Assembly (NCBI GenBank): GCA_016935525.1
Contig: JAFGQU010000021.1
Location: forward strand, 15,028 to 79,027
DNA length: 64,000 nucleotides
Reading direction: 5' to 3'
From: Candidatus Omnitrophota bacterium
GTDB taxonomy: Bacteria; Omnitrophota; Gorgyraeia; Duberdicusellales; 4484-171
The notes under the pieces were generated by a model. It worked only from the letters and a program-made list of their open reading frames with translations, was not told the DNA's origin and did not search any database. Each line of letters opens with the position of its first letter. Positions within the stretch are counted from its first letter, which is position 1. The translations under genes were made by a program, and so were the position numbers. This document shows, piece by piece, positions 4,244 to 33,097 of this stretch.

Positions 4244-4809
4244 ATTTTGTTGTGTTCCATTTTTGCGATCACTTTTGGTTTAATCCCCGAATTATCAAAT
4301 AAGATCCAGGAATCTGACATTTTAATATACACGTGAAAAAAGTTATGGATACTTCTACCGAAACGTCTTTTTATATCGACAACAGGGACATCATGGCCGC
4401 CTTCCGCGACCCTATTTTTAATACGGGCCACAGCTAATTGGGGATCAGGGAGCCATAAAAAGAAAAGATGCAATTGATATCCTTCTTCTTTTAAATTCTG
4501 AAAATGCCTTAGGTAAGTTTTACCGGCAAGCGTCGTCTCAAAACCGAAATCGATCTTCCTCTTCACCATCTCTTTAATCTGGTCCAAAACAAGTTTCCCG
4601 GCTTTGATTGCTACTTGTTGGGGCGAAAATGGAGATAATCCTTGGGCAATAAGATCAGCATTCACAAAATGAGGGCAATGAGCATAATTTGGCAGAAATT
4701 CCTTAGCAAACGTCGTCTTCCCCGACCCGTTGGGGCCGGCTATTATGTACACATTATTTTCCCTTTTCACGGAAATATTATATCGTGTGAGAGGATATTG
4801 GCAAATCAA
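4183..4809 (-). CDS. Zeta-toxin/AAA_33-like P-loop kinase
   Basis: 208 aa with Walker A GPNGSGKTTF, of size and type seen in the zeta-toxin/UNAG-kinase family. Confidence 0.5.
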   Translation of the reverse strand: MICQYPLTRYNISVKRENNVYIIAGPNGSGKTTFAKEFLPNYAHCPHFVNADLIAQGLSPFSPQQVAIKAGKLVLDQIKEMVKRKIDFGFETTLAGKTYLRHFQNLKEEGYQLHLFFLWLPDPQLAVARIKNRVAEGGHDVPVVDIKRRFGRSIHNFFHVYIKMSDSWILFDNSGIKPKVIAKMEHNKICKKDMPLLKKIINKTGVEI

Positions 4810-4841
4810 ATGAACCAGATGACAACCTACGTATCCACCAT

Positions 4842-4949
4842 CTACAGTCTCTGGTCTACGGTCTATGGTCTACGGTCTACGGTCTATGGTCTACGGTCTA
4901 TGGTCTATTGACTACTGACTATCGACCATCAACTATCGACTATCGACGT
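4842..4949. repeat. Heptanucleotide tandem repeat array (YGGTCTA)n followed by (GACTATC)n
   Basis: Reads tctacag tctctgg tctacgg tctatgg tctacgg tctacgg tctatgg ... then gactact gactatc gaccatc aactatc gactatc. Confidence 0.85.
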
Positions 4950-9486: not shown

Positions 9487-9637
9487 AGTCTACAGTCTCT
9501 GGTCTATGGTCTCTGGTCTCTGGTCTCTGGTCTACGGTCTCTGGTCTATGGTCTACGGTCTATGGTCTCTTGACTACTGACTATCGACTATCGACTATGG
9601 ACTATCGACTATGGACTATCAACCATCGACTATTTAA
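9487..9637. repeat. Heptanucleotide tandem repeat array (TGGTCTM)n then (GACTATS)n; the longest copy in the window
   Basis: About 12 units gtctacag/tctctgg/tctatgg... followed by about 9 units gactact/gactatc/gactatg/gactatc.... Confidence 0.9.
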
Positions 9638-11093: not shown

Positions 11094-11200
11094 TTACAGT
11101 CTCTCTCTGGTCTCTGGTCTCTGGTCCCTTGACTATGGACTATGGACTACTGACCACCGACCATCGACTACTGACCATCGTCTATTGACTATCAACTAAC
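11094..11200. repeat. Heptanucleotide tandem repeat array
   Basis: Reads ctctctggtctctggtctctggtcccttgactatggactatggactactgaccaccgaccatcgactactgaccatcg. Confidence 0.85.
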
Positions 11201-11745
11201 GCTTTATATCGTTCCGGAAACCAGACTTTATATAATTCAAACATTTCTTCTCCTAAATGTTTTTTTAAAATCTCGATTTTACTCTGGCCACTGCCATCAT
11301 CATAATCACCTTCCTGAAGGGCGATGTTTTCAAAGATCACACCTACCCCTTTCTTGGCATCACTGAAAACTTCGTCACCGCGGATGCTGTTATAAAGCAC
11401 CCCGTTTATTCCGTTCACATAAAAACCGGACGGGTAGTTTATCGTCACGCCGCCTTTTTCTTTAGACATTTTTTTAAGTTGATCGATCATAAGAACTTTC
11501 TGTTCGTGGCTCATCAGAATCCACACGATAACCGAATTCCCTTTCTCGATCTGCTCATGGAGATAAACTTCATCCGTCTCTTTAGGAATAACGTTATACA
11601 TAACGGCATGTTCTTTCAACTCTTCACTGGTAATAAGCGACTGATCTTCTATGATCGGCAGCGCCTCGTCAATCACCGCATAACTATTCGCCGTCGCAAC
11701 AACTACCCACCCTATAATCAATAATATGTTTTTCAGTTTATTCAT
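11182..11745 (-). CDS. Secreted hypothetical protein (signal peptide)
   Basis: 187 aa with a hydrophobic N-terminal leader MNKLKNILLIIGWVVVATANSYA. Confidence 0.4.
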   Translation of the reverse strand: MNKLKNILLIIGWVVVATANSYAVIDEALPIIEDQSLITSEELKEHAVMYNVIPKETDEVYLHEQIEKGNSVIVWILMSHEQKVLMIDQLKKMSKEKGGVTINYPSGFYVNGINGVLYNSIRGDEVFSDAKKGVGVIFENIALQEGDYDDGSGQSKIEILKKHLGEEMFELYKVWFPERYKALVDSQ

Positions 11746-12262
11746 TCACAAACGTTTTTCCGTTCCAGGTATATATTTCCCAAGCCGGTTCATCGGCATA
11801 CGACCAACCTTCTTCATCAAACTTCGGCACACCGATTTTTATCGTAGGCGGATTTGATTGAAAATCTGTCTCTATACCGCATCCACTTCCGGTCTCAAAT
11901 ATTTTATACAATTCATCGTCTTTATAACCGTAAACAGCAAGATTCGTATAATGCATTCCGCTTTGCGACCAAGCCACAATTTGATGGGCAGCATCTTTAT
12001 TAAGACTTACAAACTCGACTTTTCCCATATGTTCGGCCATAGAAAATGTGTGTGCTTTTTCCGTATCGGGATCATATACGGTAACGATCCCCTCTTTCGC
12101 ATACGGCGGCGCATCGGTGAACGTACCGTACACCTGATGGACGGTAATGGTTTCAGTTCCTCCGTCACCGTCCAGATCGACGAAATGGGTCTCTAATTCC
12201 GCCGCCGCGGCCGCGCCGCACATAACCCCACACATCAAAATGAGTACAAATAATGATTTCAT
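11738..12262 (-). CDS. Secreted hypothetical protein with DLDGDG (FG-GAP/VCBS-like) motif
   Basis: 174 aa with a signal peptide; overlaps the downstream gene by 8 nt, suggesting an operon. Confidence 0.4.
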   Translation of the reverse strand: MKSLFVLILMCGVMCGAAAAAELETHFVDLDGDGGTETITVHQVYGTFTDAPPYAKEGIVTVYDPDTEKAHTFSMAEHMGKVEFVSLNKDAAHQIVAWSQSGMHYTNLAVYGYKDDELYKIFETGSGCGIETDFQSNPPTIKIGVPKFDEEGWSYADEPAWEIYTWNGKTFVNE

Positions 12263-12275
12263 AAGATAATCGTTA

Positions 12276-12325
12276 GTATATAGTCCATAGACCAGAGACT
12301 GTAGACCATGGACTATTCACCATAT
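12276..12325. repeat. Short heptamer repeat block (mixed orientation: TAGTCCA/TAGACCA/TGGACTA)
   Basis: Reads atagtccatagaccagagactgtagaccatggactat, with 8-bp inverted ends. Confidence 0.7.
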
Positions 12326-12726
12326 ATCGCCGCGATGATCATCCCTTCCAGAGGAGTCTGTATCAACCCCATGATCGTCCAGTACAGAACAACTGTAGGA
12401 GCGACCGTCATAAACGAGTACGTAGCGAACATTCCCGGCAGGATCCCGACCGCCCATACGCATAATCCAAACACGAACCCTTTGGTCAGTTTATTTTTCC
12501 CGGGTAGTCCTTTACGGATCAACGCGTACACCAAAGCTAATATAATACTTATTACCAGACTGCCGATAAAGAACCCGGCGCCCGGCGCGGAATCCATCGG
12601 TTTCCACACATTAGTCGGTTCGAGTTTATAGACCCAGTTAAAAATCCCGGCACAGGTCACCATCCCTGCTATCGCATTAAAAATAGTTACCGCTACGCCA
12701 GCCAAAAGCAGTTTTCCTATCTTCAT
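12313..12726 (-). CDS. Small integral membrane protein (hypothetical)
   Basis: 137 aa with 4 predicted TM segments. Confidence 0.4.
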   Translation of the reverse strand: MKIGKLLLAGVAVTIFNAIAGMVTCAGIFNWVYKLEPTNVWKPMDSAPGAGFFIGSLVISIILALVYALIRKGLPGKNKLTKGFVFGLCVWAVGILPGMFATYSFMTVAPTVVLYWTIMGLIQTPLEGMIIAAIYGE

Positions 12727-12842
12727 ATCCTCCTCCTTTTTTACGTTGAAATGATTATAACTCAGCTATAGATATTTGCAATAAGGGGGTAGTTCGAATG
12801 ATAAAAATGGCTCAGTCCGCCCGTTCGCCCGTTGCCCCGTTT

Positions 12843-12990
12843 TATAAATAAATCCTAAGACCGAAGCACTAAATTCTAAACAAGCTCTAAGCTCTAATTT
12901 CAAAACAGATAAATATTTTTTCATTAGAATTTGGAATTTAGGATTTGTTTTGGATTTAGAATTTAGGGCTTAGAATTTTTAGACTGGTGA
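12843..12990. repeat. Composite inverted repeat built from about 11-nt direct repeats (CTAAATTCTAA / TTAGAATTTAG)
   Basis: Left arm aaatcctaaga...ctaaattctaaacaagctctaagctctaattt. Right arm ttagaatttggaatttaggattt...ggatttagaatttagggcttagaattt. Centre near 12925. Confidence 0.6.
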
Positions 12991-13038
12991 TCTCCCCCCG
13001 CCACCCTGCACCCGGCACCCGAAACTGCTAAGGAACGG

Positions 13039-13440
13039 TTAGCAGGTAGCGGTGAGAGATTTATAGTTTCTATACATCCTTTCGACATTCTTATTATTCA
13101 CGTGATCGTGATGTCTGAACCCTCCGCCGAAATTTTGAGGAATATGCATAAGTTCATGGATGATCACTTTATCCTGTTCTTCGCCGGGAAGCTTATCAAA
13201 CCGTTCAGAAATAAATTCAATAGCATAATACGCCGGACACCCGATAGTTTTCTGCATGATCTTTGCTAATCCGTGACATCGCGCGATCGCGCGCCGTGAA
13301 GTGGACCCCGAACTTCTGAAACACTTGAATAGTTCCGGATGAATGTGAGGGAACAATGTCTTACAGATGTCTTCGGCTTTCTCCTGGAGATCACCCGCGA
13401 ATTCATAACCGATAGTTTTTCTTCTTTTCTTTCGGCGCAT
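13039..13440 (-). CDS. HExxH-motif zinc metallopeptidase-like protein (SprT/DUF45-like)
   Basis: 133 aa with HELMHI followed by a His-rich segment (GGGFRHHDH). Confidence 0.4.
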   Translation of the reverse strand: MRRKKRRKTIGYEFAGDLQEKAEDICKTLFPHIHPELFKCFRSSGSTSRRAIARCHGLAKIMQKTIGCPAYYAIEFISERFDKLPGEEQDKVIIHELMHIPQNFGGGFRHHDHVNNKNVERMYRNYKSLTATC

Positions 13441-13503
13441 GTCTCTTATTGTATCACGGCCGGTTTTTACCGAAAAGTTCGAATATGAAGACTGGCGAAA
13501 AAG

Positions 13504-13536
13504 TCGCTGGTCGATGGTCTATGGTCGTTAGTCAAA
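13504..13536. repeat. Short heptamer repeat remnant (TGGTCGA TGGTCTA TGGTCGT)
   Basis: Reads gctggtcgatggtctatggtcgttagtc at the left edge of the AT-rich island. Confidence 0.5.
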
Positions 13537-13680
13537 AACCAGGCAGGTGTCGGAGCTCACCCCGAATCGAGCTTCGCTCTGGTTCGGGGTCGGTCTTATT
13601 CTGCCTTCGGCAGAATCTCCTAAATACCCACCCATCTAGGGTAGCCCTTCAAGCGCACTTCGCGCGCTTTCCCTCATCTT

Positions 13681-14193
13681 CTATTCGAATTTCCATTTCT
13701 CTTGCCTAAAAAAATCAAACCGATTAAAATACCGGATCTTATAAAAACTGCAGATATTAGGGATTCGATAGGTATTCGTTTTAAAACTCTCATCTGTAAC
13801 CACAGCACAAGAAAACTTTGATTTTCCATTAGTATACTCTCTATTCTCTCTAATCGCCAAAGCAATAACCCAAGGGTCCGCATAAGGAGGTTCTTTATCA
13901 GGGCTAGCAAAGCCAGGATGATCTTTCAAAATATCTATCATAATATCTTGTTGGATGTCGTCTACATCAATAAACATATGTTTATTATCCTTAACCCAAT
14001 CAACCAAACCATCTTCATATCTAACTAATTCATCATGTACTTCTAGTGGAGATATTAGCCGTTCCTCTTGGATCAATTTCTCAATGTTAGGCCAAATTTT
14101 AGGATAAATGTCGGCGGGATGTTGTCGATAAATATTAATCAACGCACTGCTATCAATACAATATTTAATTTTTTCTTCCTCATTGCTACTCAT
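13681..14193 (-). CDS. DUF4411-family (PIN-like) protein
   Basis: 170 aa with an N-terminal YCIDSSALIN and the conserved acidic residues typical of the PIN-like DUF4411 fold. Its start overlaps the stop of the upstream ImmA/IrrE gene by 4 nt. Confidence 0.6.
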   Translation of the reverse strand: MSSNEEEKIKYCIDSSALINIYRQHPADIYPKIWPNIEKLIQEERLISPLEVHDELVRYEDGLVDWVKDNKHMFIDVDDIQQDIMIDILKDHPGFASPDKEPPYADPWVIALAIRENREYTNGKSKFSCAVVTDESFKTNTYRIPNICSFYKIRYFNRFDFFRQEKWKFE

Positions 14194-15320
14194 ACCATCG
14201 CCAACATTCCTACATCATGAAAATATTTAGTTTTTATTCCTAAATAATTAGACATATCAGCAGCAGTAATGAACCCTTTATTACCGGCCTCAAATACCAT
14301 AGAAACATAACGCTTGCCTTTCTCCGAAACACAGCGACCTGCGACAGTACTTCGTCCAAACGCTTTATATGGTTTTTCTTGTCTTTTCATCTCTTCGTAT
14401 AATTGCTGATACTTTCTGAAAGAAATATAATTCAATACTTGGAGACGTCTTAAGAAAACATATTTGCTAACTTTAAATTTTCTGGCAATAGATTTTATAG
14501 TTGGGATATCAAATATTTCATTCTTAAAACTGATCACATTTGTTTTTGGTACTAAAAATGCACCGGAAAAATGATTACTGAAAATTTCTCCGCTCTCTGA
14601 GTGTTGGTCTTCTTTATATTCTGGCAAACACATACCTTCTCTACCAATAAGTATGTGTGCATATTCATGAAATAATGTAAATATTTTTGCATTAATAGCA
14701 TCTTTGGAATTTATGACTATTGCTGGCAACCCTTTCCCATAAAAAGTAAATCCTCGAATTTCATTAACTGGTAAACTAAGTTGAAAAACTAATATATTCT
14801 GACTTTCTACCCATTTTCGCCAAATTTGAAAGGCTTCAAATGAATCACGCCAGTTAAATTGTTCTTCAATCTTTATTCCACAAGTCTGCCTAATCTGCTC
14901 AGCCACTATTTCAGGATTTTCAGAAAGCGAATGCGCTTTAAAATCCGGCCCTTTTACATTCAATTCCATAGCTAATTCTGAAGCCCTAGACTGATACTGT
15001 CGAGCCCTACGTATTAATATTAAGCTTTTGGAAGATATTGGCAGACGTACTTCATTAGGCAAGGTACGAAAATCTTTTAGCAAGACTTTTGTCTTAGGTG
15101 GTTTTGGCAAGAAAAAAGCTGTTAAAGGACGTTTGTAATATGTCGAGAGTTTTCTTAGTTTTGCAATAGTTATATCTACATCTCCCGATTCCCAAGTTTC
15201 GAGCAACTCAGGTTTTACTTTCAATTTTCCAGATATTTCCTCGACACTAAAACCTGCTGTATCGCGAGCCCATTTTAAAGTTGCCGGAGTAATTTTTGCT
15301 ATAATACTCTTATGTCTCAT
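14190..15320 (-). CDS. XRE-type HTH fused to an ImmA/IrrE-family (COG2856) zinc metallopeptidase
   Basis: 376 aa with an N-terminal HTH (TLKWARDTAGFSVEEISGKL...) and the metallopeptidase motif HEYAHILIG. Confidence 0.7.
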   Translation of the reverse strand: MRHKSIIAKITPATLKWARDTAGFSVEEISGKLKVKPELLETWESGDVDITIAKLRKLSTYYKRPLTAFFLPKPPKTKVLLKDFRTLPNEVRLPISSKSLILIRRARQYQSRASELAMELNVKGPDFKAHSLSENPEIVAEQIRQTCGIKIEEQFNWRDSFEAFQIWRKWVESQNILVFQLSLPVNEIRGFTFYGKGLPAIVINSKDAINAKIFTLFHEYAHILIGREGMCLPEYKEDQHSESGEIFSNHFSGAFLVPKTNVISFKNEIFDIPTIKSIARKFKVSKYVFLRRLQVLNYISFRKYQQLYEEMKRQEKPYKAFGRSTVAGRCVSEKGKRYVSMVFEAGNKGFITAADMSNYLGIKTKYFHDVGMLAMV

Positions 15321-15325
15321 ATTTT

Positions 15326-16435
15326 CTAACTAAAGAATTCCCCCTGAAACGCCTCCTGCATTAAAGAATTAAAAAGATTATTTAATTCTTTTTCTGACTC
15401 TTTTTGTTTTTGCTTCAAACTTTCAACTTTTTGAACAAGAGTGGCGAATTTCTTCTGTTGGGGCAAGGGGGGAAGAATTACCTTCAACTTTTCTAATGGT
15501 TTTTGTGTTATTTTTGGCTGCCCAGAAATATCTGCATATCGGTTTAATTGATGGAACCACAATAAATAAAACAAAAATTGTAAGTCAATGTCTTTCTTGA
15601 ACTGCTTTATGTAAATAGCATTATCCGAAACCCAACATTTACCTCTTGTGAGATGAACACAACCACAATAGACACCCACTCGTCCAATAACAATCGTCGG
15701 GAATTCGACTAAATAATCATTAAAATAACCCATAATCCCATTGCCCCCATATGAAGGGTATGGGTATGAATTATCGAGATTTTTCGAAGGGTTAAATTTC
15801 CCACTAGATAAAATAAATAAGTCCTTTCCAAAGGCTATGCCCCACCCTTTTGTATTCTTCACCGGATCGCCGAACATTTCCAAAAATGCTGATTTCAAAA
15901 ATTCATCAGTCAATTTGTTTATGTGGGCTCTCTTTTCAATTGTAGATTCAGCCTTAGCAAGAATTGCCGATGTCTTTATTTTTATCGGCTCCGAAACACT
16001 TGGCACTTTAATTTCTTCAATATCTGACAATCGTATAGATGGGTACGCTTTATCCCGTATAAGCTGACTTGGGCGGAATCGCCTGAACCAATATTTTAGA
16101 AACTCGCTATCAATTTCTTTTTTAGGTATTATTGTCGCAAGGTGGCTGACTACATAACAAGAATTTTGCAATACATAAACTCTGTCTTTTGTCGCTGACA
16201 TGCCACTTTTAGCAAATAAAATTGTTCCTTCAGGAAAAAGTCTTAATTGAAATTTTTTTGCTACATCATCATTAATCTTTTCAAGCGAATTTTCGTCTCC
16301 GCCAGACAATAAAAATTCTAAACTTCCTGCCCTAACAAAAGGGTGTCCTACCTTGCCAAAATACTGCTGACCTTGAGGAGCACCTTGCCCAGCTGAGACT
16401 TCAGCAATAGTTTTTAAATATGTTGTTTGCTTCAT
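15326..16435 (-). CDS. hsdS: Type I restriction-modification specificity subunit
   Basis: 369 aa with the HsdS-typical TRD plus conserved-helix architecture. It overlaps hsdM by 4 nt. Confidence 0.75.
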   Translation of the reverse strand: MKQTTYLKTIAEVSAGQGAPQGQQYFGKVGHPFVRAGSLEFLLSGGDENSLEKINDDVAKKFQLRLFPEGTILFAKSGMSATKDRVYVLQNSCYVVSHLATIIPKKEIDSEFLKYWFRRFRPSQLIRDKAYPSIRLSDIEEIKVPSVSEPIKIKTSAILAKAESTIEKRAHINKLTDEFLKSAFLEMFGDPVKNTKGWGIAFGKDLFILSSGKFNPSKNLDNSYPYPSYGGNGIMGYFNDYLVEFPTIVIGRVGVYCGCVHLTRGKCWVSDNAIYIKQFKKDIDLQFLFYLLWFHQLNRYADISGQPKITQKPLEKLKVILPPLPQQKKFATLVQKVESLKQKQKESEKELNNLFNSLMQEAFQGEFFS

Positions 16436-17943
16436 AGCTCTTTATCGATTTCCATAACTAGGATATCAATTTCTTTCTCTAAATAATGAATTTTCTGAAT
16501 TATGGTTTTTGGATCCTCGTATTCTATTTCTTCGTATTCAATCGGTTTATATCTCGAAATTGAGAGATCATAATCATTTTGTTTTATTTCTTCAAGACCA
16601 ACCCATAGCCATTTATCGCCTTTTTCTGGTTGTCTATTTTTATCACGGACTTTCCATTGTTGAACAATATCCGGGATATCATTCTCTTCAATTTTATTGC
16701 GCTTATCATCAAGGGAATACCCATCTGCCTGCATATCGTAAAACCAAACTTTATCGGTTTTATCGCCTTTAGTAAATACAAGAACTGCCGTTGAAACTCC
16801 AGCGTAAGGCTTGAATACTCCGGCAGGCATAGAAATAACTCCTTCAAGCGCACATTTTTCTAGAATCATTTTCCGAATATCTTTATGAGCATTACTTGAC
16901 CCAAAAAGTACACCGTCAGGCACAATTACACCACACCGACCGCCTGTAGTTAGCATATTTGTAAAAAGATTGATAAATAATAGTTCGGTTTTTGGACGTT
17001 TGCTCTTTCCTGCAATCGTCAAATCTTCACTTATATCGCTACGATCGACACTTCCCTTAAATGGTGGATTAGCAAGGATCACATCATAACAATTTCTTTC
17101 ACTGAAATTTTTTGATAATGTATCTGCATAGCAAATATTTGGGTTGGCGATTCCATGAAGCACCATATTCATTAGCCCTATTCGTACCATCGTAGTATCA
17201 AAATCATAGCCATGAAATGCTTTTTCCCATAGAAAGTTCCACTGTTTCTTATCTACAATTTTATCTCCCACCAAATTATGAGGCGCTCCATCTTCATCGT
17301 ACTCTATTTGGTCAGAGTCGGTATGCATTTTAAGAATATGATTAAAACTGGCAATCAAAAATCCTGCAGTTCCGCAAGCAGGATCACATATTCTTTCACC
17401 TAACCGAGGATCTAACAACTCAACAATCATCCTGATAATGTGCCTAGGAGTTCGAAACTGACCATTTTTACCTGATTGAGATATCTCACTTAAAAGATAC
17501 TCGTAAATATCTCCTTGGATATCTATTCCCTGAGCTGAAATATTGAGTTCATCTATAATTTTAACAGCTTCTTGTAAAAGAGATGCCTTAGGTATTAGAA
17601 ACACCGCGTCTTTCATAGATTCAGCATAAAAATTACCATCTCCACCTAATTGTTTAATGAATTGAAAAACAATATCTCGCACATGTTTAAGCATCCCTTC
17701 TGCATCAAAATACATCCAGTGCGACCATCGGCAATTCTCTTTTTTCGCAAAAATTGACTTATATTCAATATTGCGCCTTTTAGCGGCATTCTTCTGCATA
17801 TTGTCCATATCTTCAAGACGTCTCATAAAAATGAGATAGGAAATTTGCTCTACCGCGACTAATGGATTTGACAATCCTCCAGAATAGAACATGTCCCATA
17901 ATTTGTCGATTTTACTCTTAATTTGTGGATTCGAACTTAACAT
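16432..17943 (-). CDS. hsdM: Type I R-M DNA methyltransferase subunit (N6-adenine)
   Basis: 503 aa with the NPPF catalytic motif (ILANPPFKGS) and a SAM-binding motif. Confidence 0.9.
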   Translation of the reverse strand: MLSSNPQIKSKIDKLWDMFYSGGLSNPLVAVEQISYLIFMRRLEDMDNMQKNAAKRRNIEYKSIFAKKENCRWSHWMYFDAEGMLKHVRDIVFQFIKQLGGDGNFYAESMKDAVFLIPKASLLQEAVKIIDELNISAQGIDIQGDIYEYLLSEISQSGKNGQFRTPRHIIRMIVELLDPRLGERICDPACGTAGFLIASFNHILKMHTDSDQIEYDEDGAPHNLVGDKIVDKKQWNFLWEKAFHGYDFDTTMVRIGLMNMVLHGIANPNICYADTLSKNFSERNCYDVILANPPFKGSVDRSDISEDLTIAGKSKRPKTELLFINLFTNMLTTGGRCGVIVPDGVLFGSSNAHKDIRKMILEKCALEGVISMPAGVFKPYAGVSTAVLVFTKGDKTDKVWFYDMQADGYSLDDKRNKIEENDIPDIVQQWKVRDKNRQPEKGDKWLWVGLEEIKQNDYDLSISRYKPIEYEEIEYEDPKTIIQKIHYLEKEIDILVMEIDKEL

Positions 17944-17957
17944 TTCATCTCCTGTTA

Positions 17958-18073
17958 AATAGGGTAATATTAATTTTATTTTACCCTATTTATATAACAT
18001 ATTACCCTATTTCTGTCAATAGGGTAATTATTGTCAAATATTACCCTATTTATTCATATCATTACCCCATTTT
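17958..18073. promoter_or_regulatory. Array of six copies of the decamer TTACCCTATT (4 direct, 2 inverted) upstream of hsdM
   Basis: The copies are aaatagggtaat, ttaccctattta, attaccctatttc, aatagggtaatta, attaccctattta and attaccccatttt, all in the AT-rich fic-hsdM spacer. Confidence 0.6.
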
Positions 18074-18114
18074 GGTAAGTTCAAAAATTGAATTTACTCA
18101 AATCGTCGTAAATA

Positions 18115-19155
18115 TTACACTTTTTTCCACTTGGCATTACGCCCAATTCCTGTAGATTTTATCTTTCCAGCATCTCTTAAATCTCTCAATACTTTCCTTA
18201 TCATATCGCGGGTCACATTCGGACAAGCCTTTTCTAGTTCTGAAATCGAAAATGGCTTAATAAATCTATTGATTTGGGCGATTATCTGACCTGTCTTAGA
18301 CCTCGTACGCTTAAAAACTCCAACTCTCCCTTCAAATTCTTTATATGCAGCAAGTAACATAGCATGAAAATAATCAAGCCAGGGGAATATATTGTGCTCA
18401 CCTTGATGCCAACCGTTTGAAGAAGCAATAAGAGAATCATAATAACTATCTTTCGACTCTTCAATGATTCGTTCCAAACTTATGTATTTTCCTACACGAT
18501 AACCACATTTGTATAACAATAAAAGGGTTAACAACCGCGCGATCCTCCCGTTCCCATCTTTGAATGGATGAATGCATAGAAAATCAAATATAAACAATGG
18601 GACTAGAATAAGGTGATCATGAATTTCGTCCTCAATATATTTGTTATAAAGCGTGATGGTTTTTTTCATATAATTGGACGTATCTTTTGCGGGTACCGTC
18701 TGGAAACGAATGGTTGTGCTCCCATCAGGATTCTTATCTACAATAGCGTTATCCACTTTTTTCCAAAATCCGGACTTAATAGTTGTATATCGATATAACA
18801 TTGAATGGAATTGCAATATGACATTTTCATCGAGAGGAATATTTTGGTGTGATTGATGGATAAGGTTCAATACATCTTTGTAACCAGCAATTTCTTGTTC
18901 AGGACGGTTACGGGGTTTAGTTTTTTCTTTTACAATATTCTCAATCCTTTTATGCGGTGCCGTTACACCTTCTATCCTATTGGATGCTTCTGTACTTTCT
19001 ACAATCGCACTCTCCAGTAACTTTTCTAATACATCAGGTGACTGTCGAGTATAGAGCTCTTCTTTTCCTTTATATTCTCCTAGTACATGGATTGTCTTTA
19101 ACATTTTTGAATCAAATTTCAATTTTTTTAGATATTTTGACTCTAGCGATTCCAT
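18115..19155 (-). CDS. Fic-family protein (class II, N-terminal inhibitory helix) with C-terminal winged-helix domain
   Basis: 346 aa with the Fic motif HPFKDGNGRIARLL and an upstream [ST]xxxE[GN] inhibitory motif (SNRIEG). The C-terminus is basic and DNA-binding-like. Confidence 0.85.
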   Translation of the reverse strand: MESLESKYLKKLKFDSKMLKTIHVLGEYKGKEELYTRQSPDVLEKLLESAIVESTEASNRIEGVTAPHKRIENIVKEKTKPRNRPEQEIAGYKDVLNLIHQSHQNIPLDENVILQFHSMLYRYTTIKSGFWKKVDNAIVDKNPDGSTTIRFQTVPAKDTSNYMKKTITLYNKYIEDEIHDHLILVPLFIFDFLCIHPFKDGNGRIARLLTLLLLYKCGYRVGKYISLERIIEESKDSYYDSLIASSNGWHQGEHNIFPWLDYFHAMLLAAYKEFEGRVGVFKRTRSKTGQIIAQINRFIKPFSISELEKACPNVTRDMIRKVLRDLRDAGKIKSTGIGRNAKWKKV

Positions 19156-19165
19156 TTCGATCTCC

Positions 19166-21955
19166 TTATACTTTTATACTATTAAAAACTCCTATTATCT
19201 CCTGCAGTTCTTCTTCGGAAAATAACCTTGTAGCTGCATCTATCCCAAACTGGGTAAATGGAGGCTCAAAAAGATCGTCGTATTCAATATGTTTCTTCTT
19301 AGCAAAAACATTCTTTATTGTGCGTAAAAAGCGTATTTGCTCAGCCGTAAGCGCGTAGTGGTTGTTTCTTTCAATAACATAGGTATTAAAGGATTCATTA
19401 ATTATTTCTTCTGGTTCAGGGAATTTATATAAGCCAAGGATGCTCTTTATAAATTGTAAAAAACTACCATAGGGGCAAGCATACGTCTTTCTTAAATTAT
19501 CTTCATTTATATAGAGTTCGGGACTATTTAAGGTATCTTCTAAATCTACCAGGTCTTTGTCGGAAATTGGCTTATTCTGTTTTATTTTGACAAGAGCGGG
19601 ATGCGACTCTGCTAATTCTATGACTCTCTTTTCCACATTCTTTCGATAGCTATACACATAGTCGCCCTCTCCTTCGGGTCCAAATTCTATCCATTTCCTC
19701 TCAATCACTTCATCATCAAGGTCAAGTTTCACAATAGATGGTGGTTCTATCCTTTTATATTTCATTATTTCTGTAAGATTAGTCTTTATGTATTCAATCT
19801 TTTCATAATCAAGTTTATGCCAAAAATCAGAAGATAAAACTTTTATAATATGGCTTTCCTGTTCTTTTACTGCCTTTAGATTGCGCGGCAGACATTTAAT
19901 GTCATTTGTGATGGAAGTTCTGTACTTCTCTAAATCTTCTTTTTTATGGGTGATACAGGCTAAACCAAGATTTTCTACTTTAAGTAAGAATTGGTATTGA
20001 TAAATATTTATATCACTACAACAACGTAACAATGGTGCAATTTCTTGATCGAGAAATTGAATCGATTTAGTATCAACATCATCCCACACCTCTTTAGATA
20101 ATGCCTTATGGATATTACGTAGATTCTCACGAACAGTAATAGAGGGTTCGGGTAAAGATTGAATGTCATTTATGATTTCCTCTTTGACCTTATCAAAATA
20201 AGCTTGGTTAGACTGTCTAAATAGATTGAGCTTCTTTAATCGCACCCTAAATACTTTCACTGGCAAAGCTTCTTGTTGCGCTGGAACTTCGCCTTCTGGT
20301 TTTTCACCAAAATACTGGAAGTTGTTCCAGTGATCTATTATCAAAAATCGATCTTTTTCAATACACCATGATTTCCTTTTTAGCAAATCATCCTCTAATG
20401 TTCGAGTTCCTCGCCCAATCATCTGCCAAAACTTTATTTTGCTAAATACTGGTTTAGCAAACACAAGATTTACAACTTCTCGTATATCAACGCCAGTATC
20501 AAGCATATCTACTGAGATAGCAACACGTGGATAGTTCTCATTTTTGAATTTATCAAGCAGCTTCAGCGGTCTTTCCATCTTCGAATCTATAATATCGACC
20601 AGTTTACCCTGGTACTCTGGATACAATTCATTAAATACCATCCACAATCTTTTTGCATGTTCATGCGAAAGTGCAAATATAATGGATTTACCCGGTACTA
20701 CACCAGAATCATCTTTAAGACATACATCCATAAACTCACGTACTAATGACTCATTTGTACCTAGATTTGTAACCTTTTTTTCCAAATCAGTACCTTCAAA
20801 ATCGATCTCCTCAAGGGTTAACCCTTCTTCAACTAGTTTCTTTTGTATACTTAGCGGCAATTCGTTACCTTTAATTCCTGTAATCTGAAAGTTTGTCTTT
20901 GCAGCATATGGTGGTCGAAAATCAACAAGATACTTATCTTCAATAGCTTGATTGTATGCATAATTAAAAGTGGGGTGCCCATTTTCACAACTAAAAAATT
21001 TAAAAGTATCTCTATCAAGAAAATCGCTGGGAGTCGCAGTTAAACCAATTTGGATGGCATGAAAATAGCTTAGAACATCTTTCCATTTATTATAAATTGA
21101 TCTGTGACACTCATCTGAGATAACTACATCAAAAAATCCTGGAGATACAGAGGAAAAACACCCCATCATTGTCTGAATTGTCGCAACATTCAATCGCTTC
21201 GACTCCTGTAAATCGCCATAGCGTATCCAATGACGAGATTCATTAGGAAGATGCTCTTTAAAATTATCATAAGCCTGTTGCGCTAACGCTTCTCTATCGA
21301 CAAGGAAAAGCACTCTTTGTGCCCATCCTGCTCGGATTAAAACATCTATCAATGCCATAGCTGTTCGTGTTTTCCCTGTGCCAGTTGCCATAACAAGTAG
21401 AAATTTGCGTCTGCTCTTTTGTAAGCCATTAAAAATTCGCTTCAACCCTTCTATCTGGTAATCTCTATTGATAATTTCTGGTTTTATAGGTATTGAATGT
21501 AAATCTTTGCTATGCTCATTCTGATACAGGGTGCGTTCCAAATCTTCACGACTGAAAAATCCATGCACCATAGATGGCGCGTAACGCTGTCTATTCCAAT
21601 ACCATATTTCGTATCCATTCGTTAAAAAGATAAGCGGTTCCCTTCCATATTGTCTTTGTATACCGTCAGCATAGTCCTCGGCCTGCTGTTTTCCTACAAT
21701 TGGATCACGTGAAGTACGCTTTGCTTCTACAATAGCTAAAGGGTCACCAGCACGGTCTAAAAGAAGATAATCAGAAAAACCTGCTGTTTCATATTCCGCT
21801 TCACCATCGGAAATAGGTCGTCGAGTTCCTGCTCCTGCAATTTCAAATTCTGTTAACACGTGAGAATGGTCGTTTATCTGCCAACCAACTTTTTCCAAGC
21901 TTGAGTTTATTATTTTCTTTCTCGTCTGCATTTCTGTAGGATCAATATGATACAT
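19166..21955 (-). CDS. hsdR: Type I restriction enzyme R subunit (helicase/endonuclease)
   Basis: 929 aa with Walker A MATGTGKT and the DEAH box VISDECHRS (SF2 helicase). Confidence 0.9.
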   Translation of the reverse strand: MYHIDPTEMQTRKKIINSSLEKVGWQINDHSHVLTEFEIAGAGTRRPISDGEAEYETAGFSDYLLLDRAGDPLAIVEAKRTSRDPIVGKQQAEDYADGIQRQYGREPLIFLTNGYEIWYWNRQRYAPSMVHGFFSREDLERTLYQNEHSKDLHSIPIKPEIINRDYQIEGLKRIFNGLQKSRRKFLLVMATGTGKTRTAMALIDVLIRAGWAQRVLFLVDREALAQQAYDNFKEHLPNESRHWIRYGDLQESKRLNVATIQTMMGCFSSVSPGFFDVVISDECHRSIYNKWKDVLSYFHAIQIGLTATPSDFLDRDTFKFFSCENGHPTFNYAYNQAIEDKYLVDFRPPYAAKTNFQITGIKGNELPLSIQKKLVEEGLTLEEIDFEGTDLEKKVTNLGTNESLVREFMDVCLKDDSGVVPGKSIIFALSHEHAKRLWMVFNELYPEYQGKLVDIIDSKMERPLKLLDKFKNENYPRVAISVDMLDTGVDIREVVNLVFAKPVFSKIKFWQMIGRGTRTLEDDLLKRKSWCIEKDRFLIIDHWNNFQYFGEKPEGEVPAQQEALPVKVFRVRLKKLNLFRQSNQAYFDKVKEEIINDIQSLPEPSITVRENLRNIHKALSKEVWDDVDTKSIQFLDQEIAPLLRCCSDINIYQYQFLLKVENLGLACITHKKEDLEKYRTSITNDIKCLPRNLKAVKEQESHIIKVLSSDFWHKLDYEKIEYIKTNLTEIMKYKRIEPPSIVKLDLDDEVIERKWIEFGPEGEGDYVYSYRKNVEKRVIELAESHPALVKIKQNKPISDKDLVDLEDTLNSPELYINEDNLRKTYACPYGSFLQFIKSILGLYKFPEPEEIINESFNTYVIERNNHYALTAEQIRFLRTIKNVFAKKKHIEYDDLFEPPFTQFGIDAATRLFSEEELQEIIGVFNSIKV

Positions 21956-21980
21956 AAAAAATAAGCCTCCAATAATATTT

Positions 21981-22706
21981 CTACATCATCCCTGCGTCAG
22001 CAAAACTGAAATGTCGGTTATCTCCTATTATTAAATGATCCAATACTTTTATCCCCATTATCTTACCTGCCTTAATCAACTCTTGATTAAAACGATTATC
22101 GTCAATGCTAGGGTTGCAATCGCCCGAAGGATGGTTATGAACACAGATGATTGCGGCAGCAAAATGCTGCAAGGCTTTCTGGAAAACCTCTCGTATAATT
22201 GGGACGGCTTTGTTAACTGTCCCTTCGGTTATTTCGATGATATCGATGACTCTGTTCTTTGAGTTCAGAAGAATGATTTTGAATACTTCTTTTTTCAGAT
22301 CACGCATGCGCGGCATGAGGATATCAACGACATCTTTTGACGATTTGATCTGAGGCCGATCTTCTTTTACCTCTGTTTCCTTAAACCTCCTGCCTATTTC
22401 TATCGCTGCCTTTATTTGAGCAATCTTAGCTTTTCCTAATCCTTTAATTTCTTCCCATTGGGCTATGTCGGTATGGGCCAGATTACGAAACCCTTTGAAT
22501 TTCTGAAGCACTTTTCGGGAAAGATCGATCGCACTTTCCCCTTTTACCCCGTTACGGATCAAGATCGCCAGCAATTCCGTATCGCTCAGGGTATGCTCTC
22601 CGTTTTTGAACAGTTTTTCCCGGGGTCTATCATCTTCCGGCCAGTTATGTATTGCGGTAGGATACTCTCTATTGCGGCTTTTATACGTAGCTTTCTCTTC
22701 CGACAT
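21981..22706 (-). CDS. radC: RadC-family JAB/MPN domain protein
   Basis: 241 aa with an HhH N-terminus and the JAMM motif HNHPSG. Confidence 0.85.
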   Translation of the reverse strand: MSEEKATYKSRNREYPTAIHNWPEDDRPREKLFKNGEHTLSDTELLAILIRNGVKGESAIDLSRKVLQKFKGFRNLAHTDIAQWEEIKGLGKAKIAQIKAAIEIGRRFKETEVKEDRPQIKSSKDVVDILMPRMRDLKKEVFKIILLNSKNRVIDIIEITEGTVNKAVPIIREVFQKALQHFAAAIICVHNHPSGDCNPSIDDNRFNQELIKAGKIMGIKVLDHLIIGDNRHFSFADAGMM

Positions 22707-22758: not shown

Positions 22759-22797
22759 ACTGTCTCCTCTCCACAACCATCACTCCCCTACCCCTTC

Positions 22798-22816
22798 GGC
22801 AACACCGGATGTTGCC
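22798..22816. repeat. REP-like hairpin GGCAACACC-GG-ATGTTGCC
   Basis: Imperfect palindrome with one mismatch. Confidence 0.6.
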
Positions 22817-22862
22817 AGATGGTCATCTCAAATATCCCTTATTCCACTGTGCTCTTTCTTAA

Positions 22863-22899
22863 GTACCCTTTGGCAACACCGGGTGTTGCCAAAGGGTAC
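22863..22899. repeat. REP-like perfect 18-bp palindrome GTACCCTTTGGCAACACC/GGTGTTGCCAAAGGGTAC
   Basis: Perfect inverted repeat with a 1-nt loop, immediately after the RAYT stop codon. Confidence 0.8.
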
Positions 22900-23580
22900 T
22901 TATGCTATCGACTCATCCTCATCAAACAACAGATGTTTTATTTTGGCTAAATCACGTTGATAGAAAACTCTGTCTTGAACAAAGCTTAAGTACTGTGCCG
23001 GTCTTATTTCAAATAAATCGCCGTACTCGCACATTCTTTTTGCTTTTTTATCCAGTGAAACGTATTCTTTATACGATGAGGCTCTCCAGTCGGCAGGATC
23101 ATTTGTCAAATACGCTGTTACAGGATTGAGATGAACATACCGAGTTAAATGCAATAATTGATCATCGGTTTCCACCCGAACATTCTTAAAACGTGCTTCC
23201 CATAATGGTCCTTTCCGGTCATATTTGGTATTAAAATATCGAGCGTAACTATTCAACAATCTTCGCACAAAATCTGATATTCCATTATCGACTGTCTGTT
23301 TAAGAACTAAATGTATATGAGTCGGCATACTGCAATAAGCGATAATCTGGACAAGTTTTTGGTCAGATTGAGATACGACTGTATTCGTTTCTTTTATCTG
23401 TTCACTAGTCATTCGATCAAACTTGCTGAAGCTTATAGGTCTATCTCGATACTGATAATATTCTATCATTTTTGCCATGCGTATATAATCATAGTCGTTA
23501 TGGAATACTACGTATTTCGCAATCGTACGAGAAAACACATGATAGACCTGTCCCGTAATCAACTTCTGCGTCCGTACCAT
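22900..23580 (-). mobile_element. REP-associated tyrosine transposase (RAYT, IS200/IS605 Y1-transposase-like)
   Basis: 226 aa with the HUH motif MPTHIHLVL and a downstream catalytic Tyr region (NSYARYFN). The gene is flanked by GGCAAC...GTTGCC palindromes. Confidence 0.75.
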
Positions 23581-23593
23581 ACCATCCTCCTTA

Positions 23594-23622
23594 CCTTTGG
23601 CAACCTACGAGGTTGCCAAAGG
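23594..23622. repeat. REP-like hairpin CCTTTGGCAACC-tacga-GGTTGCCAAAGG
   Basis: Perfect 12-bp stem just upstream of the RAYT start. Confidence 0.8.
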
Positions 23623-23755
23623 GTTAAAAAAGAAAGACCTTCGCCCATCACCTGAGCAAAGGTCTCTATTAATTCTTTATACTCCTATAGCTATTATTGT
23701 CAATCCCTATCAGTGATCATCTGGTGTTTTTCAAATCTGCGATCATCTGTGTATA

Positions 23756-23801: not shown

Positions 23802-23873
23802 GTCACAGAGACACACGTCACACGTCACACGTGGAAGAACGGAACGCGGGATCCGGAACGCGATACGCGTAAT
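23802..23873. repeat. Heptamer-periodic repeats (GTCACAC x3, then AACGCGN units)
   Basis: Reads gtcacagagacacacgtcacacgtcacacgtg then gaacggaacgcgggatccggaacgcgatacgcgt. Confidence 0.6.
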
Positions 23874-24916: not shown

Positions 24917-26881
24917 CTATTTTCTGTGAAATGAATTGAATTTATCGGTATATTTGAGGACGGTCCATACAAAAGCGGAATGGCTCCAGGTAAGCGGTGA
25001 GACACAAAGCGGCGAACCGGTGACCGGATGGATCTGTTCGGCAAGTACGCCGGAAGGTAACGCGTTGTTCCCGCACCATTCAAGATACGGTAACGCCGTT
25101 TGTAGTTCTTCCCGGTTTTCGGCAGAATCGATAAAGTATTCGCCTAACCAGAGCGTCGAAATAAACCAGGGGTTACCCGGAATATCTTTTGGACTGTCTT
25201 CAGCCCGTTGATAGACGTCACCCGGGTATCGCGCGCACCCTTCAACCGAAGTTTTTAGCCATAACTGGTCACGTATAGATTTGACTGTTTCGATCATACG
25301 CGGATCTTTAGGTTCGAAAATTCCTAACGTCACCAGGCTTAACAGGCTGATATCAATGGTCTCATCAAGCTTGTACCCTCCGTCTATCCGGGACCCTGAA
25401 CGGGCAAACCGGTTCAGGCCGGCATGGTAAAGATGGTGACTGATCCCCTGCGTCATTTCATCGGCTACGGAATCATACTTTTCAGCTAAAGAGGTATCTT
25501 TAAAGAGTTTCGCGAATTTTGCCGCGGCTCTTAAACCCGCGATCACCGATGCGACCGTATAGGCGTGCAAAGCGTATCGTTCTTCCCAAAGATCATACGA
25601 AGGTAACGGTAATCGGGTCTGCGGGTCACGGTACCGGACCAGAAAGTCGGCGGCTTTTTTAATGAGCGTATTGTACAGCGGCCGGATAAATTCTACGTCT
25701 TTTAAACTCTGGTAATGTATCCATAACGCCCAAAGAGTCAACGCGGTCGAATCTTCCTGGATAGGAAGGACTTCTTTCCCGTCGACTAACCAGGCATGCC
25801 AGTTACTGGCAAGAGATCCGTCCGGATTATAATGTTGGAATAGATAACCTTCTTCCGATAACACCCGCGCGCAAAAATCGAAATATTTCATACAGATATG
25901 CGAGTACCCGGCCTTTGCTAACGCAGCGGCGACAAACGCGCCGTCACGGCCCCACATATATGAATACGTATCTTTTCCGAAACGGACAATATCCGAATCG
26001 TTCGCGGCAATAATGGCACCATGGTTGTCGATCTGCGTTCTCAGGATAAGCAGGCTGCGGCTGAAAATATCGGTGATCGGTTTTGGTAACTTTTTGAGTT
26101 TAAGAGACTGTTTCTGTACCCAGATCGTCCAGTATTTCGACGACCGTTTGATAAGTTCTTCCGGGGTTTTTTGATGGACTTCTAAATTGAGTTTCGCGAC
26201 TTCAGGATACGTCGTGCCCGCAGCCATCCAATAATACGCATTTGTTTTTCCTTGAGCGGGCAATTCCAGCCAAATACCGACGGTAGAATGCGGCGAACCC
26301 CATGCCGACGGATTACCGCTCAAGTTTCCGGTTTCGGTTTCTTTGTCGGCTACTGAATTTTCCGGATTTCCCCGTCTGCCGCAGGTAAAATGTTGTACAC
26401 CCCAAGTGTCATGGGCCCAGCAACTGATAAGAAAATACCGGTGTACCTTGTAGTGGATGATCGAACAACTGCGCGGATCAAAATAGGCAGTACCGCCGAT
26501 ATCGTTCCCATAAAGATAAAAATCATGATTAAAAAAAAGCCGGACTTGCCGGACCCTATCCTGAAGATTGGTTACTTCGATTTTTTTAATGTAGATGTTC
26601 AAATCCAGATCTACGACATCCGCACATCGGAGTTCTAACCCTAACGTATCATTTTTGAGAAAGACGTCCGTTACCAGACTTTTATCATGATACCTTAAAT
26701 CTTTTTCCCATTCCGGACCCATCCGCGAATAGTGTCCGTCCGCCCATACGCCGAAACGGAAAGGATTCCCGCTGGAATGGTTTTCCTGACCGATAAAAGG
26801 GAAATATATGTCCCGGATCTGATAATCCGAATCGAAATTCAAAAGAAAAGAACCGTTACTTACCGGGATGTCTTTAGGCAT
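24917..26881 (-). CDS. Glycoside hydrolase family 15-like protein (glucoamylase/trehalase-type (alpha/alpha)6 barrel)
   Basis: 654 aa of GH15-related length and character, with an N-terminal beta-sandwich and an (alpha/alpha)6 catalytic region. Assignment is by overall resemblance. Confidence 0.6.
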   Translation of the reverse strand: MPKDIPVSNGSFLLNFDSDYQIRDIYFPFIGQENHSSGNPFRFGVWADGHYSRMGPEWEKDLRYHDKSLVTDVFLKNDTLGLELRCADVVDLDLNIYIKKIEVTNLQDRVRQVRLFFNHDFYLYGNDIGGTAYFDPRSCSIIHYKVHRYFLISCWAHDTWGVQHFTCGRRGNPENSVADKETETGNLSGNPSAWGSPHSTVGIWLELPAQGKTNAYYWMAAGTTYPEVAKLNLEVHQKTPEELIKRSSKYWTIWVQKQSLKLKKLPKPITDIFSRSLLILRTQIDNHGAIIAANDSDIVRFGKDTYSYMWGRDGAFVAAALAKAGYSHICMKYFDFCARVLSEEGYLFQHYNPDGSLASNWHAWLVDGKEVLPIQEDSTALTLWALWIHYQSLKDVEFIRPLYNTLIKKAADFLVRYRDPQTRLPLPSYDLWEERYALHAYTVASVIAGLRAAAKFAKLFKDTSLAEKYDSVADEMTQGISHHLYHAGLNRFARSGSRIDGGYKLDETIDISLLSLVTLGIFEPKDPRMIETVKSIRDQLWLKTSVEGCARYPGDVYQRAEDSPKDIPGNPWFISTLWLGEYFIDSAENREELQTALPYLEWCGNNALPSGVLAEQIHPVTGSPLCVSPLTWSHSAFVWTVLKYTDKFNSFHRK

Positions 26882-30659: not shown

Positions 30660-30736
30660 TCCCCGGTAGCTCAGTCGGTATGAGCAACTGACTGTTAATC
30701 AGTGGGTCGTAGGTTCGAGCCCTACCCGGGGAGCCA
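30660..30736 (+). tRNA. tRNA-Asn (anticodon GTT), CCA encoded
   Basis: Cloverleaf: acceptor tccccgg/ccgggga, D-arm gctc/gagc, anticodon stem actga/tcagt with loop ctGTTaa, T-arm gtagg-ttcgagc-cctac, discriminator G and CCA. Confidence 0.85.
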
Positions 30737-33079: not shown

Positions 33080-33097
33080 TATTGTTAGTCACATGGG

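Follow-up and report, generated by a model that had tools for sequence, protein, structure and literature searches.

A probably acquired, AT-rich type I restriction-modification cargo with embedded Fic and terminal ImmA-DUF4411 genes beside radC in Candidatus Omnitrophota

The minus strand of a 64,000-nt stretch of Candidatus Omnitrophota bacterium DNA (contig JAFGQU010000021.1 of assembly GCA_016935525.1, positions 15,028-79,027; hereafter the window) carries six co-oriented genes at 13681-21955, namely hsdR, fic, hsdM, hsdS, a gene encoding a helix-turn-helix (HTH) domain fused to an ImmA/IrrE-type peptidase domain, and a DUF4411 gene. We consider this segment to be horizontally acquired defence cargo from an AT-rich donor, situated directly downstream of a native radC gene, with a probability of about 0.78. 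The horizontal acquisition of a defence locus proposed in an initial annotation of this DNA is supported, acquisition at the radC site being supported by a break in composition and codon usage, the differing cargo found beside radC in relatives, the divergence of RadC compared with that of the cargo, and the affiliation of the nearest Fic relatives with other phyla.

The six genes of the block have a G+C content (GC) of 0.343–0.363 and a third-codon-position G+C content (GC3) of 0.249–0.316, compared with means of 0.459 (minimum 0.372) and 0.505 (minimum 0.344) for the other 47 open reading frames (ORFs) of the window, such that the block genes lie below each of the 47 in both measures (Mann-Whitney p = 9e-8). 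The tetranucleotide distance to the remaining window is ~2 fold higher over 13.5–22.5 kb, and the codon-preference distance is 0.16–0.22 for the block versus 0.08–0.17 for other genes. The AT-richness relative to the flanks described in the initial annotation is borne out, the GC and k-mer profiles showing a sharp break instead of the uniform composition that it had named as counter-evidence. Its extent of ~9 kb (13441-22706) is, however, too wide, with radC and the spacer at 13441-13680 both being host sequence. RadC has a native composition (GC 0.424, GC3 0.446) and differs from the restriction-modification (RM) genes of the window by 6 points in GC and by 15 in GC3, the right-hand break lies no more than 25 nt from the radC stop codon, and GC returns to 0.47 in the left spacer. 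The host-like composition of RadC and the left spacer therefore limits the compositionally foreign segment to 13681-21955 (8.3 kb).

A metagenome scan with Fic as query returned 11 loci in which a Fic gene (65–70% identical) is followed by HsdM, these loci not being independent of the query. HsdM is 75–81% identical in these loci, and HsdS is 30–35% identical in the nine that are long enough to include it. In all five loci with sequence upstream of fic (L073, L077, L079, L081, and L082) the order is RadC-HsdR-Fic-HsdM, and the contigs with the recurring RadC-HsdR-Fic-HsdM-HsdS core are AT-rich and differ in their 3′ cargo, hsdS being followed by a NYN-domain protein in L075 and by unknown proteins in L073 and L082. 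In L081 a Schlafen-type gene lies between fic and hsdM. Conserved synteny of the whole block, which the initial annotation had also named as counter-evidence, was not seen in these relatives, with ImmA-DUF4411 missing from all 11 Fic-HsdM loci.

Among L073, L081, and L082, RadC identity (68–84%) tracks Fic and HsdR identity (73–86%), and RadC and the RM genes are of one composition, unlike in the window. Between the window and these three loci, RadC is 53–58% identical whilst Fic and HsdR are 68–71% identical. As the window RadC is more diverged from the cassette RadCs than Fic and HsdR are, the cargo has a history other than that of RadC. The window RadC is 69–74% identical to Omnitrophota RadCs, versus 54–59% to the cassette-linked RadCs, in all three thirds of the protein; a chimeric radC with a recombination junction within the gene is ruled out, as RadC is nearer to Omnitrophota in each third. 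The nearest named relatives of the window Fic are from Elusimicrobia (77% and 69% identity), Desantisbacteria (67%), and Margulisiibacteriota (64%), with an Omnitrophica Fic being only 56% identical.

Several observations weigh against an acquisition. No integrase or recombinase was found in or beside the block, apart from a separate Y1 transposase on the far side of radC, and no convincing att-like flanking repeats were found, with the nearest and sole tRNA gene lying ~8 kb away (30660). The empty site for which the initial annotation had suggested looking in related genomes was not found among 70 loci scanned with the GH15 neighbour, where synteny with the nearest species representatives goes no further than the GT1-GH15 pair, and exact-protein look-ups with Band7 and DUF4411 returned only the same contig of SRR13394437, and no closely related genome without the block. 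Defence genes are frequently AT-rich even if long resident, and composition by itself is for that reason weak evidence for transfer. Furthermore, the RadC-HsdR junction is tight and is kept in five other loci, and could reflect a functional or ancestral linkage between radC and RM. These observations are also the strength of a vertical explanation, by which radC-hsdR-fic-hsdM-hsdS is an old resident arrangement and its AT-richness the general bias of RM and defence genes; the adjacency of RadC and HsdR, with gaps of 5–25 nt in the five other loci, and the failure to find mobility genes, att repeats, or an empty site at the locus would all fit. We nonetheless regard vertical inheritance as improbable, since the nearest RadC relatives (70–74% identity) stand beside other cargo, the window RadC lags behind Fic and HsdR in identity to the cassettes whilst RadC tracks both within them, the composition of RadC and the RM genes is uniform in L073, L081, and L082 and split in the window, and the nearest named Fic relatives belong to other phyla.

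An assembly or binning chimera, in which DNA of a foreign organism was joined to an Omnitrophota contig, would account for the sharpness of the break at the radC stop codon, and the source is a metagenome-assembled genome (MAG). The likelihood of this is nevertheless very small, as both junctions lie within single contigs of two assemblies (a 17,786-nt Logan contig from SRR13394437 and an 84,698-nt NCBI contig), and the window RadC, ImmA, and Fic proteins exactly match those encoded on this NCBI contig, which is from a ‘Candidatus Omnitrophica’ MAG. Operon-like spacing and ribosome-binding sites also run across the junctions, and the same RadC-HsdR junction is present in five unrelated contigs. 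Acquisition downstream of a native radC is the reading retained here. A 23-nt repeat pair of 78% identity (13699 and 22724), considered as a possible att site, was judged to be probably due to chance, and megablast found no match to the block in plasmids or phages.

The gene neighbourhoods of the nearest RadC homologues point to radC as a site of variable cargo. These comprise six contexts plus the window, a small sample in which those with a named source are Omnitrophota, MAG taxonomy labels being noisy. An RM system different from that of the window lies within 10 kb downstream of radC in five of the six contexts, being a type II methyltransferase and HNH gene with OLD and Schlafen genes (L106), an MNT/HEPN pair and a type III system (L107), a type III system (L108), a type I system (L109/L110), and a Fic gene with a second, divergent RadC and a type III system (L115); in the sixth context (L116), AbiEi/AbiEii lie just upstream of radC. 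Because RM and defence cargo varies beside radC in the nearest relatives, radC appears to be the native anchor of a defence hotspot in this Omnitrophota lineage. AbiEii precedes radC in three loci, Schlafen/AlbA_2 genes are also among the downstream cargo, and the two radC copies of L115 bracket a Fic gene.

Chromosomal defence hotspots flanked by core genes have been described in pan-genome studies of E. coli, Pseudomonas, and Acinetobacter (PMC10121019, PMC11723918). As in those hotspots, the neighbour is a fixed core gene (radC), the cargo varies among relatives, and there is no dedicated integrase. Unlike them, the anchor is radC, the phylum is Omnitrophota, and the cargo runs in the same direction as radC in an operon-like arrangement, with L115 having its second, divergent radC ahead of the RM genes. 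No description of radC/yicR or of Omnitrophota as a hotspot was found in the literature searched. That radC anchors defence cargo across the Omnitrophota lineage is put forward tentatively, and separately from the portable Fic module discussed below.

Gene calls were checked with Pfam, PADLOC, and NCBIfam (Table 1), and every gene assignment of the initial annotation (hsdR, fic, hsdM, hsdS, XRE-ImmA/IrrE, DUF4411, and RadC) was upheld; the PADLOC run that it had suggested matched the HsdR, Fic, HsdM, HsdS, and ImmA genes, and gave no match for DUF4411.

Table 1. Coordinates in the window, strand, and supporting matches of the block genes and bordering features.
Feature	Position	Strand	Evidence
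Left-border intergenic spacer, host-type	13441-13680	.	Heptamer array and three G+C-rich hairpins
DUF4411, 170 aa, PIN-like putative nuclease toxin	13681-14193	-	Pfam PF14367 E 4.7e-30
XRE-type HTH fused to ImmA/IrrE (M78), 376 aa, putative antitoxin/regulator	14190-15320	-	Pfam Peptidase_M78 and HTH_3/HTH_19; PADLOC RmrA E 8e-22
HsdS specificity subunit, 369 aa, two target-recognition domains	15326-16435	-	Two Pfam Methylase_S stretches; PADLOC Specificity_I E 1.5e-73
HsdM methyltransferase, 503 aa	16432-17943	-	Pfam N6_Mtase and HsdM_N; PADLOC MTase_I E 2e-175
fic-hsdM spacer with repeat array and promoter-like site	17944-18114	-	Motif matches
Class II Fic AMP-transferase, 346 aa	18115-19155	-	PADLOC SoFic E 2.7e-35
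HsdR restriction/translocase subunit, 929 aa, EcoAI/EcoEI-like	19166-21955	-	Pfam ResIII, Helicase_C, EcoEI_R_C, HSDR_N; PADLOC REase_I E 4e-157
RadC/YicR-type protein, 241 aa	21981-22706	-	UPF0758_N and JAB domain; NCBIfam RadC equivalog 248.9 bits, cutoff 180
Y1 (IS200/RAYT-like) transposase with REP-like palindromes, separate small mobile element	22792-23625 (gene 22900-23580)	-	Pfam Y1_Tnp E 3e-10

All catalytic motifs checked in the block genes are intact. HsdR has the GTGKT (Walker A), DECH, and D...EAK motifs of a superfamily 2 motor and a PD-(D/E)xK nuclease region, and HsdM has an NPPF motif at residue 292. The EcoEI_R_C domain of HsdR is matched with E 5e-26, and the NCBIfam model restrict_EcoAI reaches only 258.9 bits (cutoff 550); by these scores HsdR appears to be related to the type IB EcoAI/EcoEI family without being an equivalog. 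Judged by gene content, hsdR, hsdM, and hsdS make up a complete type I RM system. The radC-hsdR gap is 25 nt and contains a GGAGG ribosome-binding site, the hsdR-fic gap is 10 nt, hsdM and hsdS overlap by 4 nt, the hsdS-immA gap is 5 nt, and the immA stop and DUF4411 start codons overlap by 4 nt. With all junctions tight or overlapping apart from the 171-nt fic-hsdM spacer, this arrangement suggests two transcription units, radC-hsdR-fic and hsdM-hsdS-immA-DUF4411, in which radC is probably co-transcribed with hsdR and fic.

The Fic protein contains the motif HPFKDGNGRIAR at residue 196, conforming to HxFx(D/E)GNGRxxR, and an inhibitory SNRIEG motif at residue 58, with residues H196, F198, D200, G201, N202, G203, R204, R207, S58, E62, and G63 invariant in 36 subfamily sequences. 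In an AlphaFold2 (AF2) model with a predicted local distance difference test score (pLDDT) of 91.2, residues 287–345 have the topology H-b-H-H-b-b, from which the C-terminal domain is predicted to be a winged helix. The full-length fold of this model matches those of SoFic (3EQX) and Dde_2494 (4RGL), and the closest solved relative is Bordetella bronchiseptica Fic (PDB 8UQU, E 3e-116), whose structure covers the N-terminal domain only. The protein resembles SoFic (PDB 3EQX, 3ZCN) in being a class II Fic with HxFx(D/E)GNGRxxR, an N-terminal SxxxEG inhibitory helix, and a C-terminal winged helix, but has a sequence identity to it of only 18–21%; it scores 43.8 bits against the NCBIfam SoFic equivalog (ProtAdlyltaseSoFic), well below the cutoff of 550, and would appear to belong to a different subfamily of the same architecture. 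SoFic has been reported to be a single-gene anti-phage system acting as an abortive-infection toxin (PMC12249575). No AS1-like small antitoxin ORF was found on the same strand downstream of fic, where a repeat array lies instead; a 76-aa antisense ORF at this place was rejected as an artefact of the repeats.

In this array (17958-18071) the 11-nt motif AATAGGGTAAT occurs six times, with direct and inverted copies spaced 17–22 nt apart. The fic-hsdM spacer also contains a promoter-like site (TTGACA-17-TATATA) and an AGGAG ribosome-binding site, with the copies of the motif overlapping the −35 element, filling the 17-nt spacer, following the −10 element, and abutting the ribosome-binding site. 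Allowing up to one mismatch, AATAGGGTAAT has six matches in the 64 kb, all within the fic-hsdM spacer, compared with 1.8 expected by chance. We regard the array as a putative operator array of the hsdM-hsdS-immA-DUF4411 operon. Immediately 3′ of fic, 22 of 26 loci have related arrays (at least three copies of a ~11-nt motif, ranging from 3 to 6), with at least four copies in 12 of the 26 versus 2.9% of control segments; examples are at 6858-6995 in L073, 11036-11169 in L075, 9228-9392 in L081, and ~11835-11900 in L115, and others are in L085, L091, L094, and further loci. The array is kept whatever gene comes next, be it hsdM, the Schlafen-type gene of L081, or the second radC ahead of the type III system in L115, whilst in L088 the next gene is weakly DUF499-like and comes after a DUF1156 methyltransferase gene.

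Since fic is the only gene common to all loci with an array, Fic is the most likely candidate binder, and would through its winged helix bind the array and thereby set hsdMS expression. The other candidates considered were XRE-ImmA, ruled out as a general binder by arrays in at least 11 loci without ImmA-DUF4411, and HsdS, ruled out by a motif common to loci in which HsdS is ~30% identical and to L115, which has no type I system. The motif classes are also suggestive. The GGGTAAT class goes with Fic wings of the form ...KWKK(V/I), including that of L115, whose Fic is only 47% identical overall, the AGGTAAT class goes with ...(E/K/L)W(V/I/A)KK wings, and the GTGGTAAT, GTGGGAAT, and AGGTAC classes pair with differing recognition-helix and wing sequences; motif class thus seems to covary with the Fic winged-helix tail, a pattern that involves few classes and is confounded by phylogeny. 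Counting against a general association, 4 of the 26 scored loci fall short of three copies, and three plasmid-borne Fic homologues (46–52% identity) have no array, which indicates that the link between Fic and the array is not universal. A further observation on a plasmid concerns Acidovorax sp. DW039 plasmid pACDW039_1 (L117, ~8090-8300), where an ORF start resembling the HsdR N-terminus (MTKTEAQTRSELIDQQLALAGWDV...), absent from the PLSDB gene table, lies downstream of a 52%-identical Fic and may be what is left of a degraded type I system.

One possible extension, which we advance with reserve, is that this Fic subfamily is a portable two-part module, consisting of the AMP-transferase and a 3′ operator array bound by its winged helix, that inserts in RM operons, where the array would wrap a consensus promoter. 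Candidate examples, held with the same reserve, would be the type I loci, where it lies between hsdR and hsdM, the type III locus, where it lies ahead of radC2-mod-res, and the DUF1156/DUF499-like systems. Fic would then, equally tentatively, be the transcriptional controller of the methyltransferase/specificity operon, and a further role might be that of a sensor on the DNA, set free or switched on when RM is upset by DNA mimics or phage factors. No description of a Fic-linked operator array was found in the literature searched, the Fido paper mentioning the regulation of expression by Fic-HTH fusions as speculation only. A precedent is RptR, which represses a type I RM/DarTG2 island by binding promoter repeats in the type I RM system of enteropathogenic E. 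coli (PMC12255303). Both islands combine an hsdR/hsdM/hsdS set with extra toxin-type genes and a promoter bearing a series of short repeats; they differ in that the embedded genes here are Fic and HTH-ImmA/DUF4411, no RptR-like small regulator gene is present, AATAGGGTAAT is unrelated to the RptR site TAGCTA, and the candidate binder would be the winged-helix tail of Fic.

At the 3′ end of the block, the ImmA protein has an HEYAH zinc motif and matches 16 PADLOC RmrA models, of which Table 1 gives the best, whilst DUF4411 matches no PADLOC model, including RmrT. An AlphaFold single-sequence model of DUF4411 was unusable (pLDDT 36.8), and the comparison with PDB entries was made by sequence profile. 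A profile of four DUF4411 sequences, in which the acidic residues D14, E55, D106, and E135 are invariant, matches the ‘DUF4411 family protein’ of PDB 9VZY and 9VZZ (E 2e-18), and the ImmA protein matches chain A of 9VZY, an HTH cro/C1-type protein (E 8e-31). That both partners match chains of 9VZY fits direct binding between toxin and antitoxin, by analogy with this deposited structure. ImmA homologues (38–59% identity) are followed by a DUF4411 gene in all three contexts that were read through. These are L112, where a D12/N6_N4 methyltransferase, an unknown gene, and a DUF4268 gene come before the pair; L113, where the pair stands by itself amid housekeeping genes; and L114, where a type I system lies ~2 kb away. 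As the pair is kept in such varied contexts, it appears to be an autonomous two-gene unit, often but not always attached to RM loci, and in the window it would be an addition open to exchange, placed after hsdS where gene content varies.

The pairing of HTH-DUF955 with DUF4411.1 has been predicted as a ‘three-component’ toxin-antitoxin (TA) system (Matelska et al. 2017, PMC5499597), and the window pair is alike in having a fused HTH-ImmA gene directly upstream of DUF4411 and in keeping the acidic PIN-like residues. NetFlax likewise predicts a TA system for the pair, which falls in its ImmA/Rosmer zone, where PIN-like partners are mentioned, and relatives of Rosmer have reported anti-phage activity (PMC10440598). 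Similar to Rosmer (RmrT/RmrA), an HTH-ImmA/M78 gene directly precedes and overlaps a small toxin-like gene; dissimilar are the partner, a PIN-like DUF4411 without an RmrT model match, and the joining of the pair to the 3′ end of the hsdMS operon. As RmrA is matched and DUF4411 has no RmrT model match, the module would best be described as Rosmer-like and not as canonical Rosmer. Anti-phage activity of an ImmA-DUF4411 pairing is not documented in the literature searched.

The gene content and the motifs described above permit a model of how the locus may operate. The radC-hsdR-fic unit would be read from the host side, and hsdM-hsdS-immA-DUF4411 from the strong, consensus-like promoter wrapped by the six repeats. 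An HsdM2S1 complex would methylate the host genome, and an HsdR-containing complex would cut unmodified incoming DNA as a first line of defence. Fic, as an auto-inhibited AMP-transferase of SoFic type, would probably serve as a back-up toxin acting by abortive infection, its winged-helix tail binding the array and probably repressing the hsdMS promoter. The HTH-ImmA protein would hold the PIN-like nuclease DUF4411 inactive by binding to it directly, on the pattern of the homologous complex in PDB 9VZY, until a phage or stress signal leads ImmA to release or activate DUF4411 in a Rosmer-like manner. PrrC in the EcoprrI locus is an example of an accessory defence gene embedded in a type I RM system, and it is a matter of speculation, by analogy, that Fic or DUF4411 answers the inhibition of RM as PrrC does. 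The ‘multi-layer’ character of the defence is to be understood as a prediction from family membership.

The accessory genes might alternatively be housekeeping parts of the island, with Fic mainly controlling the hsdMS promoter and ImmA-DUF4411 being an addiction module that stabilises the island. In keeping with this, the array accompanies fic and extends over the −35, spacer, −10, and 5′ untranslated region of the downstream operon, its motif class seems to covary with the Fic winged-helix tail, RptR provides a precedent for a repressor acting on promoter repeats in a type I RM/DarTG2 island (PMC12255303), and ImmA-DUF4411 is found in L113 with only housekeeping genes around it, as selfish TA modules typically are. 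However, the invariance of the catalytic and inhibitory residues of Fic in 36 sequences argues for an enzymatic role, and relatives of both modules, SoFic and Rosmer, have reported anti-phage activity (PMC12249575, PMC10440598). We regard the housekeeping reading as less likely than not. The controller or addiction roles and the anti-phage roles are not mutually exclusive.

At the borders of the block, the initial annotation had placed RadC and a transposase associated with repetitive extragenic palindromes (REP) on one side, and a heptamer remnant with hairpins on the other. RadC and the transposase are both present. The latter has a Y1_Tnp domain and a GC of 0.372, scores 55.9 bits against NCBIfam REP_Tyr_transpos, under the cutoff of 80, and is flanked by three GGCAAC-N7-GTTGCC palindromes (22792-22823, 22862-22900, and 23590-23625), of which there is no further copy in the window. 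On the other side, the heptamer array (GTCGATG, 3.6 copies, 13503-13527) and the hairpins are also present, the hairpins being three G+C-rich structures (13560-13589, 13598-13616, and 13651-13669) just 3′ of the DUF4411 stop codon. The interpretation of the heptamers as a remnant of the island did not hold, the array being one of 18 period-7 arrays (at least three copies) scattered over the host intergenic DNA of the 64 kb, none of which lies within the block. The left spacer has a predicted RNA fold of −88.4 kcal/mol (z = −4.6), and the hairpins probably serve as the transcript end on the DUF4411 side; Rfam gave zero matches in the hairpin spacer or anywhere else in the block.

The heptamer arrays of the window are at 4841-4947, 9488-9633, 11104-11198, 12280-12324, 12997-13021, 13503-13527, 23812-23832, 58871-58901, 59574-59608, and other positions, with tandem 7-nt units including GTCTATG, GTCTACG, GACTATC, and CACACGT. 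They look like cyanobacterial STRR-type repeats and are almost absent from the comparison loci of related MAGs; enrichment of HIP1 (GCGATCGC) in the window was not significant. Near heptamer arrays, between a guaA-like gene and upstream genes, lies a zeta-toxin/AAA_33-like gene (4183-4809, GC 0.39) that may be another small accessory insertion. Four small ORFs of intermediate GC (0.40–0.48) at 11182-13440, between the block and a MatE gene, comprise two without a Pfam match, one DUF6789-like ORF, and one matching PF18894 (‘putative phage metallopeptidase’), and may be older cargo of the same hotspot. On the other side of the block, the GT1-GH15 pair (24917-28095) shows 70–87% protein identity across MAGs labelled Omnitrophota, Nitrospirota, Thermodesulfobacteriota, Planctomycetota, and others (L003-L072), and this operon would seem to be either unusually conserved or widely transferred. 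The region at 32810-38342 contains short ORFs 3′ of the tRNA-Asn gene (30660-30736), with a strong positive AT skew and CsgG-like, DUF5674, and DMT_6 genes, and shows no Rfam match and no sign of a mobile element.

The island itself is ordinary, with type I RM loci bearing extra toxin-type genes being well known, and ImmA-DUF4411 having already been predicted and crystallised. What is new relative to the literature searched is the radC hotspot in Omnitrophota and the operator array linked to Fic. Type I RM operons are usually thought to be without transcriptional control, and the array bears on the regulation of such an operon. Its place after fic and its apparent covariation with the wing provide a directly testable hypothesis for the function of the long-unexplained DNA-binding domain of SoFic-type Fic proteins. 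Furthermore, for an uncultured phylum with hardly any experimental genetics, the site just downstream of radC would be a predictable and cheap handle for mining new defence systems in Omnitrophota MAGs.

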